Below, piece after piece: positions 1 through 57,091 of a stretch of 64,000 nt of DNA. Location: assembly GCA_014905635.1 (NCBI GenBank), contig JABVCE010000040.1, forward strand, positions 124,001 through 188,000, in the 5' to 3' direction. The notes under the pieces were generated by a model. That model saw nothing but the letters and a program-made list of their open reading frames with translations. It was not told the origin of the DNA and did no database searches. A program made the translations under genes and the position numbers. The number at the start of each line of letters is the position of its first letter. Positions within the stretch are counted from its first letter, which is position 1. This DNA comes from Scenedesmus sp. PABB004. Its lineage: Eukaryota.

Positions 1-586
1 CGCGGTCAAGCCCGCCGCGGCTGCGGCCGCTGCGGCCAAGCCCGCCGCGGCCGGCGGGCCCGCGGGCCGCCGCCGCCTCATGCAGCCGTCGACGCCGTCG
101 TGGGCCACGCCCACCGACCTGCCCAACAGCCAAACCCTGGACGGTGCCGGCACCGCGACCTCCGCCCAGGACGATGCCGACGCGACCATTGAGGGCGTGG
201 CGCGTCCCAAGCGCGCGGAGCCGGGCACGCCCGGCTGGGCCAACCCCTCCATCGGCTGGGGCAAGGTGCGACCGGCGACGAGGCACGCGCGGGGCGCGCG
301 CTCTCACCGACCCACACGCGCGGCCCGCCCTGGCGCCCGGCCGCGCGCGCCGCAGTCGATCAGCTGGGACGCCGGCGACACCAACCAGGGCGGGGACACC
401 GAGGGGCAGATCTCCGGCGCAGTGAGCGCGCGCGCGGCCCGCCCCAGCACGCCGTCGTGGGCGTCGCCGAACATCGACCTGGGCAAGTCGATCAGCGCAG
501 ACACGTCTGGCACGAACAACCAGAACGCCGCCGAGGCGCAGATCAACGCCGCCGTGGCGGGCTACGACAGCTCTGGCTGCTGCTAG
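1..586 (+). CDS. 3' part of upstream tandem paralog of the fasciclin/repeat-tail gene (5' end outside window); intron 266-355
   Basis: Reads [41 protein letters not shown]...GYDSSGCC*, colinear with ~2891-3482. It has the same GT-AG intron and a similar 3' flank. Confidence 0.85.
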   Translation, partial: AVKPAAAAAAAAKPAAAGGPAGRRRLMQPSTPSWATPTDLPNSQTLDGAGTATSAQDDADATIEGVARPKRAEPGTPGWANPSIGWGKVRPATRHARGARSHRPTRAARPGARPRAPQSISWDAGDTNQGGDTEGQISGAVSARAARPSTPSWASPNIDLGKSISADTSGTNNQNAAEAQINAAVAGYDSSGCC

Positions 587-1121
587 GCGGCGCCGCTGCC
601 TGCCTGCTGGGCAGCGCGCGTGCGGCCGGGCCGGCTGCCAGTGCAGCTGCGCTGCATCGGACCGCGGCGCGCCAGGAACGCGCGCGGCGTCCGGACGCGG
701 GCCCACGCGCTGGGTTCGGCGTCGTGATTTGATGGCTGGCTGACTCAATCGGGGGCATTCGATGGCTCGCTCACTCAATCCAGGGTCGTTCCAACGTTGT
801 GTGTCCGCGCCCAGCACGGCGCCACGGCGCTGCTGCGCCCGGCCGGGCCCCGTTCCGCAGCGGTGCGCTCGCCGGCTCTGCCGTCGTGGTGCTGGTCGAC
901 GACGGCCCGTCGACGGGCGGCTCGTTGCAGATGACGGCGCAGGCCTGATGCGCACGTGGCGAGCAGCAGCGGAACAGCGGAACTTCTCACCCCGACCGCG
1001 AACCCTCGTGAAAGCAACGCGCACGCGCGCCGGCGCGATCGTTCCCACTCCCGCTGCCCGCGCTTGTCAGGCGGTGACGGCCCCGCGCCAATCGCCCGGC
1101 GCCCGCGCGCGCGCGTGAAGA

Positions 1122-3482
1122 ATGCCGCTGCAGACCAGCCGGCTCAGGATGCTGCACACCGCGTTGCTGCTGGCCTGCGCCCTGTTGGTGGCGCCCAGAG
1201 CCCTGGTGCGCGGGTTGAGGCGGTCCGGCAAGCCATTAGAGCCCCCGCGCGCGTGGCCGCTGGTGCTGCTCTATCTGACGCACGCTGCCCGGCCCACGCG
1301 CCGCGCGACGCCCGCCCCGCAGGCGCAGCAGGCCACGCGCGCGCAGGAGGAGGCGCTGATGACGGCGATGCAGCCCATCCGGGGGCACCCCCAGCTCAAG
1401 ACCATGGCCGCGCTGCTGGAGACGTCGGGCGCCGCCGACGTGATCACGCCCAAGGCTCGGCTGACCTTGCTGGCGCCGACCGACCAGGCACGGCATCCGC
1501 AGCCGCGGCCGCGGCGGCGGCGGCGGGCCGCGCGCGCAGCGCGCGCAGCGCCTCCGCGCTGCGCGCAGCGCTGCGGGCAGCGCTGAGGCGTCGCGGCGGC
1601 GGCGCGGCGCGGCGGCGCCCCGCAGGCGTTTGCGCGCTTCTTCGCCGAGATGGGCATCGGCCTGGGCCTGCTCGCGCGCGACGAGCCCCTGGCCGACGCC
1701 ATCGCGGCGTATCACATGCTCATCGGCGCGACGCTGGACAGCGACACGATCTTCGCCGTCGCCGCGCGGCGGCGCGCCAAGGCCGGCGCCAACGCTACGC
1801 GGCGCGCCGCCGCCGCCGCCGCCGGGCCGGCGGCGCCGCTTGACCGCGTGACGCTCACGCAGCGCGTGTACACCGCGGCGACGCCGTTTTACGTCACGTT
1901 TGGCCGCGGCGCCAACGCCACGTACGTGCGCGGCGTGCAGGGCCACGTGGCCAAGGTGACGGGCGTGCTGCGCGCGGGCAGGCACATCGTGCACATCATC
2001 GACCGCGTGCTCTACAGCGGTGCGGCCGCGTGTGCAGGGGCGCGGGGTGCAGGGCGGGTGTGCGTGCGTGCGGTGCGCGCGTGCACCGCACACACGCGCC
2101 TGCGCGGCGCGCAGGTGAGTATTTCAACACCCTGGGCGACCTCGTCGCGGCCTATCCGAGTGGCCTGGGCAGCCTCGGCGCGGCGCTGCGTGACGCGGGC
2201 ATGGGCGGGCTGCTGACGGCCAAGCCCTTCAACGACACGCTGCTCGCGCCCAACAGCAAGGCCTTTGCGGCGGCAAACCTCGCCGCCAAGGGCTTCACCG
2301 GCCGCCGCCTCGCCACGCTGCTGGCCGACCACATCGTCCCCGGCCGCTACACGCTGCCCGGCGGCAAGACCAAGCCCCTCACCACGCTGGGCGGCACGGC
2401 CATCACCGTTGACGGCCTGAAGTGAGCGCCGCTCGCCCTCGCGCCTGCCCTGCATGGCATGTGGCCCCTCGTGTGCCCCTGTCAACCATACCCACACCAC
2501 ACGTGAGCCCGCGTGCCCCACGCACCCCCAACGCAACCTGCCGCGCCGCGCCGCGCCGCGCAGGGGCCCGTCGGGCGATTTCGTGCTCGTCGACACGACC
2601 GGGCAGCGCGCGCCGATCACCAAGGCCGACCTCTTTGTCTCAAACGTGCGCCGGCAGCGCCGCGCCCGCGCCGGCGCCACGCCCGCGCCGGCACCGCCGC
2701 GCCCGCGGCGGCGCAGGCCGACGCGCGCTCCGCACGCCCGCTGCCGCGCAGGGCGTGGTGCAGGTTATCGGCGCGGTGCTGATGCCCAAGGCCGCCGCGG
2801 CCGCTGCGGCCACGCCCGCCGCACCCGCCGGCGCAGCCAAGCCCGCCGCGCCCGCCGCCGCTGCGGCCAAGCCCGCCGCGCCTACGGCCGCTGCGGTCAA
2901 GCCCACTGCGGCCGCGGCCGCTGCGGCCAAGCCCGCCGCGGCCGGCGGGCCCGCGGGCCGCCGCCGCCTCATGCAGCCGTCGACGCCGTCGTGGGCCACG
3001 CCCACCGACCTGCCCAACCTCCAAACCCCGGACGACATGGGAGGCGCCGCGACCGCCGCAGAGGACGATGCCGACGCGACCATTGAGGGCGTGGAGAGTC
3101 CCAAGCGCGCGGATCCGGCCACGCCCGGCTGGGCCGACCCCTCCATCGACTGGGGCAAGGTGCGACCGGCGACGAGGCACGCGCGGGGCGCGCGCTCTCA
3201 CCGACCCATACGCGCGGCCCGCCCCGGCGCCCGGCCGCGCGTCTGCCGCAGGCCATCAGCTGGGACACCGACGACACCTCCCAGGGCGAGACCGCCGAGG
3301 CGCAGATCGCCGGCGCGGTGAGCTCGAGCGCGTCCGACCCCAGCACGCCGTCGTGGGCGACGCCGAGCATCGACCTGGGCAAGTCAATCAGCGAGACGAC
3401 GTCTGACACAAAGGAAGAGGACGCCGCCGAGGCGCAGATCGACAACTCCGTGGCCGGCTACGACAGCACCCCTTGCTGCTAG
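1122..3482 (+). CDS. Secreted protein with two FAS1 (fasciclin) domains, Ala/Pro/Lys linker and three ~45-aa C-terminal repeats (7 exons)
   Basis: Signal peptide MLHTALLLACALLVAPRAL. FAS1 motifs TLLAPTDQ|AF, AYHML and HIVHIIDRVL; second domain TLLAPNSKAF, LADHIVPG and GVVQVIGAVLMP. Stop TAG 3480-3482. The start could be 1122 or 1149. Confidence 0.85.
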
Positions 3483-4174
3483 GCGGCGCAGACGCTGCCT
3501 GCTGTGCTGCCTGCAGCGTGTGGCCGGGCTGCGCTGCTGCATCGGGCACGACCGAACTCGCGGCCGTGGGTCAACTCGCAGCGGCCGTGGGGCAACGCGC
3601 TGGGCCAACGTGCTGAGCCAACGCGCTGGCCTTGGTGACTTGACGGGGGTCGCTTACTCAATGGGCGGGGGGATTCGATTGCTCGCTCACTCAATTGGGG
3701 GTCCAACGTTGTCCCACGGGTGTTACCGCGCTCGCCCGTCGTCGCTGCCGCGCGTGGTATTGAAACCTTGCTTGCTCTCCGTCCTGGGCGGTCCGGCGGA
3801 AGGGGCGCGCTCGTGCCGGCGACGAGTGTGGCCCGGGGCTCCCCGGGCGCAGCGCTGCACCGTCGCGCCGCCGCCTGCTCGCGCGCCGCCGCGCCGCGCA
3901 GCCCTCTCCACTCTCACACGCCGCACACCGACACGCCCTCGTCCCCAGTCCTGCGAGCCCAGTCCTGCCGCGAGAGAGGCCTCTCTGCGCCTGCCTGCCG
4001 CCCAGCCGCGGCCGCCCCCCCCCCCCGCCCAGCCGCGGGCCCCGCGTCCCGGTCGCGTCCCCCCAGGCCCGGATCAGGGCGTGCCCGCCCGCCCGTCGCC
4101 CCTGCGCGGCGTCCGCCGGCCGCCGGCGGGCATCACCAGCACCCGCGCGCCCTGCGCGCAGCGGCGGGCCCAGG

Positions 4175-4608
4175 ATGCCCAAGATCCAGCCGCCCGAGCT
4201 GAAGAAGTTCATGGACAAGAAGCTCAGCAGTGCGGCGCGGCGCGGCGGGGAGCGGGCCGCCCGCGGCGCCGCGCGGCGCCGCGCGACCGCCGCTGCTGCT
4301 GCTCACCGGCCGCCGCGCGCAGTCGTGCTCAACGCCAACCGGCACGTCACCGGCACGCTGCGCGGGTTCGATCAGTTCATGAACATCGTGCTCGACCAGA
4401 CGGTCGACATGAAGGCGAAGCAGGACATCGGCATGGTGGTGCGGCTGCGCGCGCGCGGCGGCGCTCGGGCAGCTCCCCACGGCGGCGGCGGGCCGCGGGC
4501 GCCCGCTCCCCGCTCACGCCCCGCCGCCGCCGCGCCCGCGGCCCGCCGCGCCAGGTGATCCGCGGCAACAGCATCATCACCATTGAGGCGCTGGAGCCCA
4601 TCTACTGA
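4175..4608 (+). CDS. SNRPG: Small nuclear ribonucleoprotein G (Sm-G); exons 4175-4229, 4323-4438, 4555-4608
   Basis: Spliced product [43 protein letters not shown]...[21 protein letters not shown], with Sm1/Sm2 motifs. Confidence 0.95.
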
Positions 4609-44318: not shown

Positions 44319-46791
44319 ATGGCCCTGCTCGCCAAGTCCACCGCGGGCTCGCGCACCGCGTTCGCGGGCCGCAGCCGCGCCGCGCCCAAGGTGCGGGAAC
44401 GCGACCAGGAGGCCGCATCCGGGCGGACGGGCGCGGCGGGGCAGCCCTGGGGGCGGGCCAGCCCGGGAGGCAGGCAGGCCGGGGCCAGCAGCAGGGCGCG
44501 CGCGTGCCGATGCGGCCCCGCCCGGCGCCGCTGCGGCGTGCGCAGGTCGCCCGCAGCGTGCAGGCGCGCGCCTACGGCCCCGACAGGCCGCTGTGGTACC
44601 CGGGCAACCCCGCCCCCGCCTACCTCGACGGCACGTAAGTGGCGCCCCCACGCGACGCGGGGGGAGGCGCAAACGCCGGCGCGCCGCCCGGACCGCGCCG
44701 GGAGCAGCTGCCGGCGCGCCGGCGGCGCGGCGCGGGGCGGCGGCGGCGCCGCGATCTGCGGGCGCGCCGCGCGCTGCTGCGCGCGGTGCGGCGCGGTGAT
44801 CCGCGCGCGCCGCGCCGCGCGGCGGGCGCGCGCGCGGCGCAGCAGCACGGCCGGGCTCGTGGCGGACAGACGGCCGCCGGATCCCCCCACACCGGGGCGC
44901 CGGGCGGCGCGCTGCGCGCGGCAGCGGCTGCGGCAGCTCAGCTGACGCGCAACCGCCGCCGCCGCCCGCCGCCGCCCGCCGCCGCCGCCCAGCCTCGCCG
45001 GCGACTATGGCTTCGACCCCCTCGGCCTCTCCTCCGATCCGGAGACGATGCGCTGGTGAGCAGCGGCGGCGGCGGCGCGGGCGCGCGGCGGCGGCGAGCT
45101 CGGGCGGCCGAGCGCTGTGCGGCGGCGCCGTCGCGGCGGCGGCGCGAGCGCTGGCAGCTCGCCGCGGTTGGTGTGGTGGCGGGGCGGCAGCGCAGCAGCT
45201 GGGAGCCATGGCCGCGGCGGCGGCGTGGGCGCTCGAGCAGCACGCGCGGCAGCGAGGTGGGCGTGGCGCCGCCCGCCCGCGTCACCGGTGGCCGTCCCAA
45301 CGCGCCGCGGCTGCCCACGCGCACAGGATGGTGCACGCCGAGCTGCAGAACGCGCGCTGGGCGATGCTGGGCGCCGCTGGTGTGCTGCTGACCTCGGTGA
45401 GCGCCCGCGGCTGGTCGCCAGCGCAGGCGGCAGCGCAGCACTCGGGCGACGGCGAGGGCTGGGCGTGCTCACCTGCGCAGGGCACAGCAAGCAGCACAGC
45501 AGCAGGGCGGCCAGCGGCGGGGGCGACGTCGTGGCATGCCGGCGCCGGTGCTGCTGCTGGCGGCGCTGCTGCCTCCAACAGCTGCCGTCCGCCGCTGCCG
45601 CCGCCGCAGATCGGCGCGGCCGTCGGCCTGCCCTTCCCTGAGTGGTTCGAGGCCGGCAAGGCGCCCCTGCCCTCCACCGTGCACGGCGACTGGAGCCTCG
45701 GTGCGCGCCGGCGCGCGTGCATGGGCCGGGGCCGCGCGCGCCGCTGGCTGGCGCGCGCGCGCGGCGCGCGCGCCCGTCGTGTCCCCTCGCCGACCGCGCG
45801 CGCTCCACGCTGGCGCCGCCGCGCTCTGCCGCGCGCAGGCACGCTGACGGCGACCATGTTCCTGCTGTTCCACTGGGCCGAGCAGAAGCGCATCATGGAC
45901 TTCCGCAACCCCGGCAGCCAGGGCGACGGCAGCTTCTTCGGTGCGGCGCGGCGCGGCACAGCGCGCGCGGCGCGGCTGTTGAGCCAGCGCGCGGCGCGGC
46001 ACGCAGCGCGGCGCAGCACCGTGCGGCACAGCGCGGCGCGGCGCGGCTGTTGAGCCAGCGCGCGGCGCGGCACGCAGCACGGCGCAGCACCGTGCGGCAC
46101 AGCGCGGCGCGGCGCGGCTGTTGAGCCAGCGCGCCGCCGGCCGGCAGCGCGCGCGCGCGCTCACGCGCCCCGCCGCCTCCGCCTCTGCCCCTGCCCCCGC
46201 GCCGCGCAGGCATCACCGACGACTTCAAGTCCAAGGAGAACGGCTACCCCGGTGCGCCGCTGCGCCGCCTGCCGCCGCTGGGCCCGCCCTCCGCGGCGCG
46301 CCTGCCCGCCCGTCCGCCCGCGCTCCGCTCCGCCCCGCTCACCCCTGCGCCTCGCTCCCGCCCGCGCCCGCGCCCGCGCCCGCGCCTGCCACCACCGCCA
46401 GGCGGCCGCCTGTTTGACCCGATCGGCTTCAGCCGCGGCGACGAGGCGATCTACAAGAAGTACAAGCAGAACGAGATCGTCAACGGCCGCCTCGCGATGG
46501 TCGCCAACCTCGGCTTCTGGGCGCAGGCACGGCGCCCGCGGGCGGCGGCGGCGGCGGCGGGATGCGCGGGGGCCGCTGTGCTGCGCGCGCCGCAGAGGGC
46601 CTGCCGCCGCGTGCGCCTCCCCTGACGCCCGCCCACCCGTCCGCGCGCTCGCCGCGCGCCGACGGCGACCGCGCCGCGCGCAGTACGCCGCGACGGGCAA
46701 GGGCCCCATCCAGAACCTCGCCGACCACCTGGCCGACCCCTACCACACCACGTTCACCACGAACGGAATTTCTGTGCCTTTCTACAAGTAA
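44319..46791 (+). CDS. LHCA7: PSI light-harvesting chlorophyll a/b protein, Lhca7-like (9 exons)
   Basis: [86 protein letters not shown]...TNGISVP. From recall, it is closest to Chlamydomonas Lhca7. Confidence 0.88.
45956..46137. repeat. 71-bp tandem repeat (~2.5 copies) in LHCA7 intron
   Basis: ctgttgagccagcgcgc at 45976, 46047 and 46118. Confidence 0.9.
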
Positions 46792-47445
46792 ACGGGGCCG
46801 CTGCACGCTCGAGGGGCTGACACGGGGGCGGCGCGGGCGCGCGCGCTCGCGTAGGTATGCAGGGGTCAGCGTGCGCGCGCCGCGGTGCTGCGGCGGGCGT
46901 GCGTGGAGGAGGAGGAGGGCTGTGAGTGTTTGGCTCGCTAGGCGCGCGCGGCCAGCTGGGCCGCGCGGCGCGAGAGGAGGACGGGGGGCGGCGCAGGCGC
47001 GCCGGCCCCGGGGAGGCTGCTTGGAGGCAGCGGGGCGCGCGCGGCCGCGTGTGGGCGGGCAGCCGCCGCGCGTGCGCGTGCGCAGGTGGTTGGTTGGCGC
47101 GAGAGGTGCCTGCGGCGCCGTCGCCGGCGCTGGCGGCGGGCGTGAACGCGCGCGAACGACAATGTGCCGCTGCGACCCCGCGGGTTCAGCGCTCGGGGCG
47201 ATGCAGCCCCGCCGCCAGCGCTCTCAGGCGCAGACCGCTGTGCCTTGTCTCCCCCCGACGCCGCCCGCCGCTGGCGACCCCACTTGCTGCCCGACCCCGC
47301 CGCAGCGGCGGCAGCAGCGAGCGGCCACACGGGAGCGGCCACACGGGAGCGGCGGCGCCGCTCCCGTGTGGCTGTGCCCGCGCCCGCGCGTGTGCCCCCG
47401 CAGCCCGCGGACGCTTCGCCGGTCCATCGCCGCGCCCGCGGCGGT
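46504..47445 (+). repeat. Copy 1 of ~0.9 kb direct duplication (LHCA7 3' end and downstream region)
   Basis: Near-identical to 49211-50114 apart from scattered substitutions and small indels. Confidence 0.93.
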
Positions 47446-48328
47446 CTGGCGCGTGCCTCGCAGCCGGCGCGGGCAGCCCGCCGAAAGCGCATCCCCCCCG
47501 GCCCCGCTGCCCCCGCTCCGCCCTTGGGCGACAGCTCGAGGCCCATGAACTCCTCCACGCTCGTCAACGCGTGGCGCAGGCGCAGGCCCAGCGCGTGCGG
47601 CGCGTGCTGGCGGAGCAGCAAGCGGCGCCGAGGAGCAGGCTCGGCGCGCGCTGGTCGCGGTCAGGTCTCGCGTTGGACTGCAGCCCGACCACGACCAGGG
47701 CGCCGAGCCCGCGCTGCAGCGTTGAAGCGCGCGCCGTCGCAGTGCGGGCCGTGGCCTCGCCGACGGCCCGGGCTGCGACGGCCCCGCGCCCACCTCCACC
47801 CTGCGGTGCAGGGCGCGGCGCTGCGCCGCACACGGGGTTGGCCGCCGGCCGCGGCCGCGCCGGGGAGGTGCGCGCGGCGGGCGTTGGCCGCAAGCCGCGC
47901 TGCGCGAGCGGGCGCGCGTCCCGCGCGCCGCGCCGGCTGCTGCCGCCGCGCACGCCGCGTCCCTTCCCTTCCCTCGCCGCCCCGCACAGATTCCTGGTGC
48001 TTGGCAATCACGCCGTCCTTGCTGAGGCGTTTGGGAATCTCGTGTTTGAATCCCGGCCGCCTGATCAAGGGCCGCGTGGCCGACAAGCGCCGGGGCCTGC
48101 TGTCGCTGCGTGCCGACGGGTGCGACGCCGCGCCACGCGGTGAGGTTCTCGCCGAACGCCGTGGCCAGCGACGTCGTTTGGGGGAGAGCCCCGCCGCGTG
48201 GCGCGAGTCAGAGGGCGCGTCGAGGGCGCGGCAGGTGCGGCGGCAGCGCGGCGCCGCCCCCGGGCGTGCCCGCGCGCGCACGCGCGCGGGGAGCGGGGAG
48301 GAGGCAGCACCCGCCCCGTTGGGGTTGT

Positions 48329-49210: not shown

Positions 49211-49499
49211 CCAACCTCGGCTTCTGGGCGCAGGCACGGCGCCCGCGGGCGGCGGCGGCGGCGGCGGGATGCGCGGGGGGCCGCTGTGCTGCGCGCGCCG
49301 CAGAGGGCCTGCCGCCGCGTGCGCCTCCCCTGACGCCCGCCCGCCCGTCCGCGCGCTCTCCGCGCGCCGACGGCGACCGCGCCGCGCGCAGTACGCCGCG
49401 ACGGGCAAGGGCCCCATCCAGAACCTCGCCGACCACCTGGCCGACCCCTACCACACCACGTTCACCACGAACGGAATTTCTGTGCCTTTCTACAAGTAA
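49211..49499 (+). pseudogene. 5'-truncated LHCA7 fragment (end of exon 8, last intron, last exon) in duplication copy 2
   Basis: NLGFWAQ|YAATGKGPIQNLADHLADPYHTTFTTNGISVPFYK* with no upstream LHC exons. Confidence 0.88.
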
Positions 49500-50114
49500 A
49501 CGGGGCCGCTGCACGCTCGAGGGGCTGACACGGGGGCGGCGCGGGCGCGCGCGCTCGCGTAGGTATGCAGGGGTCAGCGTGCGCGCGCCGCGGTGCTGCG
49601 GCGGGCGTGCGTGGAGGAGGAGGAGGGCTGTGAGTGTTTGGCTCGCTAGGCGCGCGCGGCCAGCTGGGCCGCGCGGCGCGAGAGGAGGACGGGGGGCGGC
49701 GCAGGCGCGCCGGCCCCGCGGAGGCTGCTTGGAGGCAGCGGGGCGCGCGCGCGCGCGTGTGGGCGGGCAGCCGCCGCGCGCGTGCGTGCGCAGGTGGTTG
49801 GCGCGAGAGGCGCCAGCGGCGCCGTCGCGGCGGCGGGCGTAACGCGCGCCAACGACAACGTGCCGCTGCGACCCCGCGGGCTCAGCGCTCGGGGCGATGC
49901 AGCCCCGCCGCCAGCGCTCTCAGGCGCAGACCGCTGTGCCTTGTCTCCCCCCGACGCCGCCCGCCGCTGGCGACCCCACTTGCTGCCCGACCCCGCCGCA
50001 GCGGCGGCAGCAGCGAGCGGCGCCGCCGCTCCCGTGTGGCTGTGCCCGCGCCCGCGCGTGTGCCCCCGCAGCCCGCGGACGCTTCGCCGGTCCATCGCCG
50101 CGCCCGCGGCGGTC
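49211..50114 (+). repeat. Copy 2 of ~0.9 kb direct duplication
   Basis: Begins ccaacctcggcttctgg and matches copy 1 through cgcccgcggcggtc. Confidence 0.93.
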
Positions 50115-50186
50115 CTGCGGGCCGCGCAGCCGGCGCAGGGGGCGGCCGATTCCGCATCACCCGCTGCAGCCCCGCGATCCCGCGCC

Positions 50187-57017: not shown

Positions 57018-57091
57018 GCCCTTGTAGCTCAGCGGTAAGCAGCGTGTGGCTTGTAACCACAAGGTCCCAGGTTCGATCCCTGGCGGGGGCA
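57018..57091 (+). tRNA. trnT(UGU): tRNA-Thr (anticodon UGU), intronless
   Basis: Acceptor stem GCCCTTG/CGGGGGC+A; anticodon arm TGTGG-CTTGTAA-CCACA; T arm CCAGG-TTCGATC-CCTGG. Confidence 0.92.

Follow-up and report, generated by a model that had tools for sequence, protein, structure and literature searches.

Interlocus (ectopic) gene conversion between tandem duplicates yields a concerted core with divergent ends, RHD/RHCE and the opsins being the textbook cases, and its theory for duplicated genes has reportedly been worked out by Teshima and Innan; duplicated histone genes of yeast are among the subjects studied in this context (PMC4700949). The plant fasciclin-like arabinogalactan proteins (FLA) and Algal-CAM of Volvox are secreted FAS1 adhesion proteins with Pro/Ala-rich glycomodules. 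The AstaP proteins of scenedesmacean green microalgae are secreted FAS1 carotenoid-binding proteins with isoelectric points (pI) of 10.5 versus 3.6-4.7, the paralogs of which differ in the C-terminal region and one of which has two FAS1 domains (PMC7477208). In plants, type I pectin methylesterases are processed by subtilases at an RRLL/RKLL motif (PMC13477033). Here we describe two tandem FAS1 paralogs in a stretch of 64,000 nucleotides (nt) from Scenedesmus sp. PABB004 (contig JABVCE010000040.1, positions 124,001 to 188,000), hereafter, the window. The last introns of the two genes are almost identical whereas the last exons are strongly diverged, and patchy interlocus gene conversion between the paralogs probably made this mosaic; we put the probability of this reading at about 0.6.

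The locus resembles the known cases of interlocus conversion in that it combines identical tracts with diverged islands and has diverged flanks, uneven silent divergence, and a middle that is more alike than the ends. It differs from the established cases in that two sequences only are compared here and that one tract edge adjoins a splice site.

The last intron and the tail exon of the two copies

Both paralogs are encoded on the + strand of the window, the G+C content of which is about 79% throughout and the introns of which are of the spliceosomal type. Copy 1 starts before the window and ends at the stop codon at 586; copy 2 occupies 1122-3482. The last introns (266-355 in copy 1, 3160-3251 in copy 2) differ by 3 substitutions (315 C>T, 331 T>C, and 348 C>T) and one 2-nt indel, that is, they are 96.7% identical, whereas the following exons, hereafter, the tail exons (356-586 and 3252-3482), differ at 43 of the 231 nt and at 27 of the 76 amino acids in a plain alignment without indels (Fisher p=1.6e-4 for intron versus tail exon). 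The longest identical run in the region 128-586 spans 59 nt (256-314; permutation P=0.0024), and the sparsest 92-column window of differences in the same region has a permutation P of 0.00095. The amino acid count given in the initial annotation of this DNA (about 27 of 76) was exact, and the near-identity of the introns was recognized there as well, with about 2 substitutions and a small indel region in place of the actual numbers. The motifs PSTPSWA, IDLGKSIS, and AAEAQI and the terminal CC, which it listed as fixed, are all invariant between the two tail exons. The statement that the tail exons lack indels stands for the plain alignment but not beyond it: the five adjacent differences at 498-502 (3394-3398 in copy 2) are explained by the loss of one nucleotide and the gain of another 4 nt away, which change A-D to E-T, and, as read from the alignment, represent one compensated frameshift, so that the tail exon is not strictly free of indels.

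The last intron itself appears to be real. The deposited protein model for this locus (P0005) splices it out in both copies, and, in copy 2, it must be spliced because the 2-nt length difference shifts the frame and the conserved tail would otherwise be out of frame.

The initial annotation placed the near-identity in the intron adjacent to the tail exon; this is correct as far as the intron goes, but the near-identical patch also takes in the end of the penultimate exon. The exon part at 168-265 (6 differences in 98 nt) is not distinguishable in divergence from the intron (3 in 90; Fisher p=0.50), and together they make up a patch at 168-355 that differs sharply from the tail exon (Fisher p=1.2e-5). 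Upstream of this patch lie an island of high divergence and, further upstream, a tract without any differences (Table 1). At the protein level, copy 1, the complete sequence of which was taken from residues 1-522 of P0005, differs from copy 2 at 3 positions across residues 82-360, whereas the protein ends are diverged, with 53-72% identity in the first 80 alignment columns and 62-75% identity in the tail. The 3' flanks of the two copies are about 60% identical, where unrelated sequences in the same genome align at about 45-55%. Diverged ends around a homogenised middle make the picture expected of an old duplication with continuing conversion that fades toward the unit edges. We infer that conversion, rather than a very recent partial duplication, produced the mosaic.

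In the proposed scenario, an old tandem duplication would have given rise to two genes for a secreted two-FAS1 protein, and repeated interlocus gene conversion would keep their core near-identical, with tracts that thin out and turn patchy as the ends of the homologous unit are approached. One recent conversion patch, at about 168-355, would include the last intron, and the last exon would lie beyond that patch, hence its older divergence at silent and replacement sites alike. In the acidic tail, which is predicted to be largely disordered, only short motifs (P-x-x-P-x-W-A-x-P-x-I-D-x-G-K-S-I-S, A-E-A-Q-I, and Y-D-S-x-x-C-C) would be constrained, so that the spacers would change at a near-neutral rate, partly via small indels.

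Silent divergence, charge, and competing explanations

Of the 24 four-fold degenerate sites in the tail exon, 4 differ between the copies, against 3 of 90 positions in the intron, which makes these silent sites about five times more diverged (p=0.035, with small counts); among the 76 third codon positions of this exon, 11 differ (p=0.012 against the intron). Such uneven silent divergence cannot be produced by selection on the protein but can result from differing times since the last homogenisation. The estimates of the ratio of nonsynonymous to synonymous divergence (dN/dS, omega) depend on the method. For the tail exon, the Nei-Gojobori counting method (NG86) gives omega of 1.28; maximum likelihood (ML) as implemented in Biopython gives dN of 0.21, dS of 0.44, and omega of 0.47; and our own pairwise codon ML, with the codon frequencies taken from the coding sequence of copy 2, gives omega of 0.53 (likelihood-ratio test against omega=1, p=0.16-0.18). 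The corresponding omega values are 1.61, 1.03, and 0.90-0.97 (p=0.88-0.97) for the 3' part of the penultimate exon, and 1.38, 0.64, and 0.64-0.67 (p=0.23-0.29) for this part and the tail exon combined. Altogether, in likelihood-ratio tests on these two sequences, omega significantly above 1 was found in no region (p=0.16-0.97). NG86 overstates omega here because the G+C content at third codon positions (GC3) of 94-95% shrinks the effective number of silent sites, which this method ignores.

The initial annotation offered two explanations of the contrast between intron and exon, namely, diversifying selection on the segments between motifs and patchy gene conversion. The first finds no support in the tests possible with a pair of sequences, with a codon-aware omega of 0.47-0.53 in the tail exon and no likelihood-ratio test placing it above 1; the second gains support from the mosaic, the diverged flanks, and the uneven silent divergence. 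The dN/dS comparison proposed there, carried out on the two copies, comes out with dS at least as high as dN in the tail exon once codon frequencies are taken into account, and with omega above 1 when they are not (NG86). Together with near-identity that covers the intron and upstream sequence (168-355, 23-127, and the core), this is roughly the outcome that the annotation itself regarded as speaking against selection. Splitting the tail exon by conservation in the outgroup sequences did not separate variable from constant positions (15/52 versus 12/24, p=0.12). When the tail-exon differences were polarised with the outgroup, it shared the copy 1 state at 7 sites and the copy 2 state at 9; given this lack of asymmetry, neither copy looks degenerate.

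Copy 2 had been described as the more acidic one, and this is borne out by the net charge of the tail exons (-5 in copy 1 and -13 in copy 2). The whole tail following the RRRL site carries a net charge of -8 in copy 1 versus -22 in copy 2, with +18 and +19, respectively, for the core, and the pI of the whole protein is 9.85 for copy 1 versus 7.06 for copy 2. Per residue, the tail charge is -0.058 in copy 1 and -0.158 in copy 2, compared with -0.071 to -0.191 in the five relatives of the tail described below; that is, the copy 2 tail is typical and the copy 1 tail is the least acidic of all.

Strain variation was assessed by comparing the contigs of three metagenome runs (X1, X2, and X3, from two studies) with the segment 1-3900 of the window; the depth of these runs is low, contigs drop rare variants, one of the runs may itself be the source of the window, and parts of the segment are without a matching contig. 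Among the contigs listed from the 3 runs, there are 0 differences over 3299-3482, 1 over 454-586, and 9-10, plus several indels, over 778-1347 (X1 and X2). At this low depth, the tail exons are not visibly hypervariable among strains, and, with 0-1 tail-exon differences, the likeness to recognition or peptide-diversity loci proposed in the initial annotation finds no support. The X1 and X2 contigs carry 5 differences in the 55 nt at 1145-1199, within the signal-peptide region of copy 2 exon 1, and more differences as well as indels in 820-1343; the strain variation thus clusters around the 5' end of copy 2 rather than in the tail exon. The single difference in the copy 1 tail exon (517 C>A, in one low-depth X1 contig, which may be an error) replaces Asn54 of the exon with Lys; copy 2 carries Lys at the same position, via a different codon. 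One X1 contig contains a 42-nt match to 1057-1098, upstream of the copy 2 start, with 4 differences, followed by the copy 1 N-terminus (MLLPRS...), which indicates that the two copies share short homology in the 5' flank.

Selection could have driven or maintained the divergence of the tails, either as diversifying selection on the spacers or as directional selection on net charge that made the tails differ in function and removes conversion events reaching the last exon. In this case, the intron would tell how recently the copies were last homogenised, and the exon differences would have arisen or been kept by selection. This explanation, which we consider possible but rather unlikely, accommodates the direction of the charge changes, 16 of 19 of which make copy 2 more acidic (sign test p=0.004), the copy 1 tail being less acidic than those of all five relatives with the copy 2 tail typical, the NG86 omega of 1.3-1.6, the resumption of divergence within a few nt of the 3' splice site, and the fact that, in the single-repeat relatives P0004, P0006, and P0007, too, most of the variation falls in the last ~20 residues. 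It would also fit the 6 differences in 168-265, all of which are replacements. However, the models that account for codon bias give omega of 0.47-0.97, never significantly different from 1; the tail exon exceeds the intron about fivefold in silent-site divergence as well; the tail exons show 0-1 differences in the contigs of the three runs, compared with 9-10 over 778-1347; and part of the variation is the compensated frameshift.

Some of these observations, along with several others, weigh against conversion. The comparison involves just two sequences and 590 aligned nt of DNA, and the near-identity of the core is at the protein level only, where it could be due in part to strong purifying selection. 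At its 3' edge, the patch ends within about 8 nt of the 3' splice site, which is either a coincidence or a sign of an exon-specific factor that keeps the copies apart. The NG86 omega values above 1 (1.28 in the tail exon, 1.61 in the 3' part of the penultimate exon) belong here as well, as do the 6 replacements out of 6 differences in 168-265 (binomial about 0.15-0.18, not significant) and the charge bias: the 16-to-3 direction is not predicted by conversion timing combined with pure drift. It hints that selection acts differently on the net charge of the two tails, which could help keep conversion out of the last exon. The difference in tail charge would then amount to functional differentiation that selection may protect from conversion.

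Two further explanations concern the intron or the assembly rather than the exon. If the near-identity were an artefact of assembling tandem paralogs from a metagenome (through collapse, cross-polishing, or a strain chimera), the true copies would be evenly diverged. The only public runs that contain pieces of this sequence are low-depth freshwater metagenomes, with no RNA run among them, strain variants are present there (the 9-10 differences and several indels in 778-1347), and, among the contigs listed, none spans either whole intron together with its tail exon. Nevertheless, we regard an artefact as quite improbable: contigs of X3, which comes from a different study than X1 and X2, match 3049-3199 and 3299-3449 exactly, and 0-2 differences are present in the X1 and X2 contigs over 454-624, 3385-3767, and 3404-3585, although this support is only partly independent because one of the runs may be the source of the window. 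Moreover, the identical runs of 105 and 59 nt are shorter than the read length and would not force a collapse, and the 2-nt intron indel and copy-specific differences are interleaved, unlike in a simple collapse. Even less probable, in our assessment, is that the intron is conserved because it acts by itself, for example as a regulatory element, as a small RNA, or through a splicing structure. The intron is the most conserved non-coding stretch between the copies (96.7% identity versus about 60% in the 3' flank), and that of copy 1 is in frame and open. However, it matches no Rfam family; its folding energy is no better than that of shuffled sequences (z=0.62 in copy 1 and 0.17 in copy 2); the adjoining ~100 nt of the upstream exon are just as similar between the copies (p=0.50); and, given the 2-nt length difference, translation of a retained intron is not conserved.

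Gene models and the tail module

The two proteins share the same order of parts, namely, a hydrophobic N-terminus, two FAS1 domains, an Ala/Pro/Lys-rich linker, the GRRRLMQ site, and a tail of about 138 amino acids (aa). The copy 2 product consists of 556 aa, with the hydrophobic N-terminus, both FAS1 domains, the linker, and the tail. The FAS1 domains were identified in P0005, the deposited fused model that includes both copies and matches Fasciclin (PF02469) in 3 stretches with E=2.5e-35 and 121.8 bits against a cut-off of 22; unspliced single frames of the window yield only partial PF02469 matches, of 20.8 and 24 bits. Among solved structures, the FAS1 part matches TGFBIp, periostin, and a bacterial beta-Ig-H3/fasciclin chain only; no solved structure matched the tail, and none matched the 102-aa exon alone.

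P0005 (1134 aa; window positions 1-4608) merges FAS1 copy 1, copy 2, and an SmG (LSM) gene at about 4175-4608, and this fusion is a mis-annotation. The model omits the last 10 residues of each copy, the first exon of copy 2, and part of the second exon of copy 2. The second intron of copy 2 (1488-1625) appears to be of the GC-AG type (GCACGG...CCGCAG), as this is the only splice that preserves the FAS1 motif LLAPTDQ-AFARFF, which is present in copy 1; the deposited model skipped 16 residues there.

Table 1. Coordinates of the FAS1 gene pair, its mosaic segments, and the matching metagenome contigs (window positions)
Feature	Position	Strand	Basis and description
Copy 1 penultimate exon, 3' part	1..265	+	Frame and translation; Ala/Pro/Lys linker, GRRRLMQ site, tail repeat 1, start of repeat 2
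105-nt tract without differences	23..127 (copy 2, 2914-3018)	+	Difference list; 3' end of the putatively homogenised gene core
High-divergence island, spacer of tail repeat 1	128..167 (copy 2, 3019-3061)	+	12/40 substitutions and a 3-nt indel
Second near-identical patch, penultimate-exon end and whole intron	168..355 (copy 2, 3062-3251)	+	9/188 substitutions and a 2-nt indel
Copy 1 last intron	266..355	+	90 nt, GTGCGA...CCGCAG; in frame, without stop codon
Copy 1 last (tail) exon	356..586	+	76 codons and stop; end of repeat 2, repeat 3, terminal GYDSSGCC; net charge -5; 43/231 differences from copy 2
Copy 2 entire gene	1122..3482	+	7-exon model mapped against P0005; joined frame open
Copy 2 exons 1-4	1122-1205, 1323-1487, 1626-2019, 2115-2422 (boundary within 1 nt)	+	Mapped against P0005
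Copy 2 exons 5-7	2565-2645, 2752-3159 (penultimate), 3252-3482 (tail)	+	Mapped against P0005
Copy 2 last intron	3160..3251	+	92 nt, GTGCGA...CCGCAG; shifts reading frame
Copy 2 last (tail) exon	3252..3482	+	76 codons and stop; terminal GYDSTPCC; net charge -13
Conserved 3' flank island	735..800 (copy 1); 3648..3712 (copy 2)	+	About 65 nt; about 150-230 nt past the stop codons
X3 contig	3049-3199		0 differences; reaches from penultimate-exon sequence specific to copy 2 into the first 40 nt of the intron
X3 contig	3299-3449		0 differences
X2 contig	3404-3585		0 differences
X1 contig	3385-3767		2 differences; one listed is in the 3' flank
X1 contig	454-624		1 difference (517 C>A)

The tail consists of three internal repeats, each with the motif P-(S/A/G)-T-P-(S/G)-W-A-x-P-x-(I)-(D)-x-G-K-x-I-S, an acidic spacer, and the motif A-(E/D)-A-(Q/T)-I-x-x-x-V; the third repeat is followed by the terminus G-Y-D-S-x-x-C-C. 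An exhaustive HMMER search of 1.84 billion cluster representatives produced 4 matches, of which P0002, P0003, and P0004 are real; the remaining one, a dynein-light-chain repeat protein (P0001), was judged spurious and dropped. In word-indexed searches, a collection of 5.8 billion proteins yielded nothing further except P0006, P0007, and P0005, the model of the window itself. The sequences of all five relatives start within the last FAS1 strand (GVVH-V-AVL-PK) and contain one to three repeats, and R-(R/K)-L-L directly precedes the first Trp/Phe motif; the Y-D-x-x-x-C-C terminus is present in 4 of the five, the exception being P0003. The tail motifs are conserved across the relatives at 39-53% identity and the spacers are not, and it is mainly the last ~20 residues that vary among the single-repeat relatives P0004, P0006, and P0007. 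Thus, the alternation of variable segments with constant motifs, as seen in the initial annotation, extends to P0002-P0004, P0006, and P0007, which keep the same motifs.

Searches for the tail elsewhere were negative: no significant match to a Pfam or NCBIfam family was detected, a search of the ESM Atlas with the P0002 tail gave no usable match, and a search of metagenome contigs with the conserved pattern gave 314 pattern matches and no relative. An exact scan of metagenome contigs with a copy-1-specific 58-mer gave 0 matches. A 14-residue match in the genome contigs of a Chloroflexia metagenome-assembled genome (L001; E=2e-4, relative to the candidates only) was taken as chance.

An AlphaFold2 model of the relative P0002, built from a 7-row alignment, has a mean predicted local distance difference test score (pLDDT) of 52 and a predicted template modeling score (pTM) of 0.19, and the only tail elements in it are two short helices over the acidic A-E-x-x-(I/V) segments. 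A largely disordered tail would fit this model, but low confidence can also stem from a shallow alignment. The junction motif is present in 7 of the 7 family sequences that reach it, as RRLM in both copies, RKLL in P0002, and RRLL in P0003, P0004, P0006, and P0007; by analogy, the tail may be cleaved from the protein or processed at this R-(R/K)-L-(L/M) site. The C-terminus of both copies is acidic and polar (...AVAGYDS(SG/TP)CC), without a hydrophobic stretch, and the terminal CC might form disulfide links in the wall or matrix. The linker consists of AAKPAAP-type units, and S-T-P-S and T-P are present in the tail motif.

A more speculative proposal, which we hold to be unlikely, combines these features. 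The tail would be an undescribed acidic, pro-region-like C-terminal module of a rare algal FAS1 group, with Trp motifs and short helices, that is released at the conserved, subtilase-type R-(R/K)-L-(L/M) site and has a cross-linking CC end, and the paralogs would have been driven apart in charge, with selection halting conversion at the last exon. If this is true, one of the proteins is strongly basic overall and the other one nearly neutral, and the last exon is an island of divergence held against concerted evolution.

The conserved island in the 3' flanks (735-800 and 3648-3712), which are near-saturated elsewhere, holds ACTCAAT twice, GCTCGCTCACTCAAT, and TCCAACGTTGT, and is AT-richer than the neighboring sequence; it is possibly an element of the 3' untranslated region or the poly(A) region, maybe a regulatory one.

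A second tandem repeat in the window (46504-47473 and 49211-50140) is about 970 nt long and 93.8% identical overall. Most of its 100-column blocks are 97-100% identical, and the two that contain 12 and 28 gap columns drop to 84 and 72 matches. This repeat has sharp edges and unrelated flanks (45-55%) and includes the 3' part of a gene for a chlorophyll a/b-binding protein of the light-harvesting complex (PF00504, E=1.9e-11). As judged from the alignment, it reflects either recent duplication or conversion, which indicates that homogenisation or very recent duplication occurs elsewhere in this genome. The chlorophyll a/b-binding protein gene and the SmG gene suggest a photosynthetic eukaryote. 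A tRNA-Thr gene (anticodon TGT; 57018-57091) is the sole match to Rfam or ARAGORN in the window.

Comparison with described systems

The evolutionary pattern is that of ordinary interlocus conversion with divergent ends, and the protein side is modestly new. The locus would be a clean, small example of how conversion between tandem paralogs can yield an identical intron next to a diverged exon and so mimic positive selection, and of how naive counts of dN/dS mislead when GC3 is about 95%. The tail, with its Trp motifs and terminal CC, matches no Pfam or NCBIfam family and has only five relatives among the billions of proteins searched. The motif in front of it is one that serves subtilase processing in plants. 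The coordinated divergence in charge makes for a testable case of paralogs differentiating via a bulk property of a disordered region.

Both proteins resemble FLA and Algal-CAM in the hydrophobic N-terminus, the pair of FAS1 domains (PF02469), the linker rich in Ala, Pro, and Lys, and the Ser/Thr-Pro dipeptides of the tail motif; unlike FLA, they lack, as judged from the sequence, a hydrophobic C-terminal signal for a glycosylphosphatidylinositol anchor and instead have the acidic repeat tail that ends with YDSxxCC. The junction of the folded part and the tail carries R-(R/K)-L-(L/M), similarly to the pectin methylesterases, but there the motif releases an N-terminal pro-region, whereas here it precedes a C-terminal tail in an alga, with cleavage putative. 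With AstaP, which we liken to this pair as a functional parallel and by description only, the paralogs share the character of secreted algal FAS1 proteins that differ in pI and in the C-terminal region; the charge difference described here resides in the repeat tail, not in the FAS1 domain.

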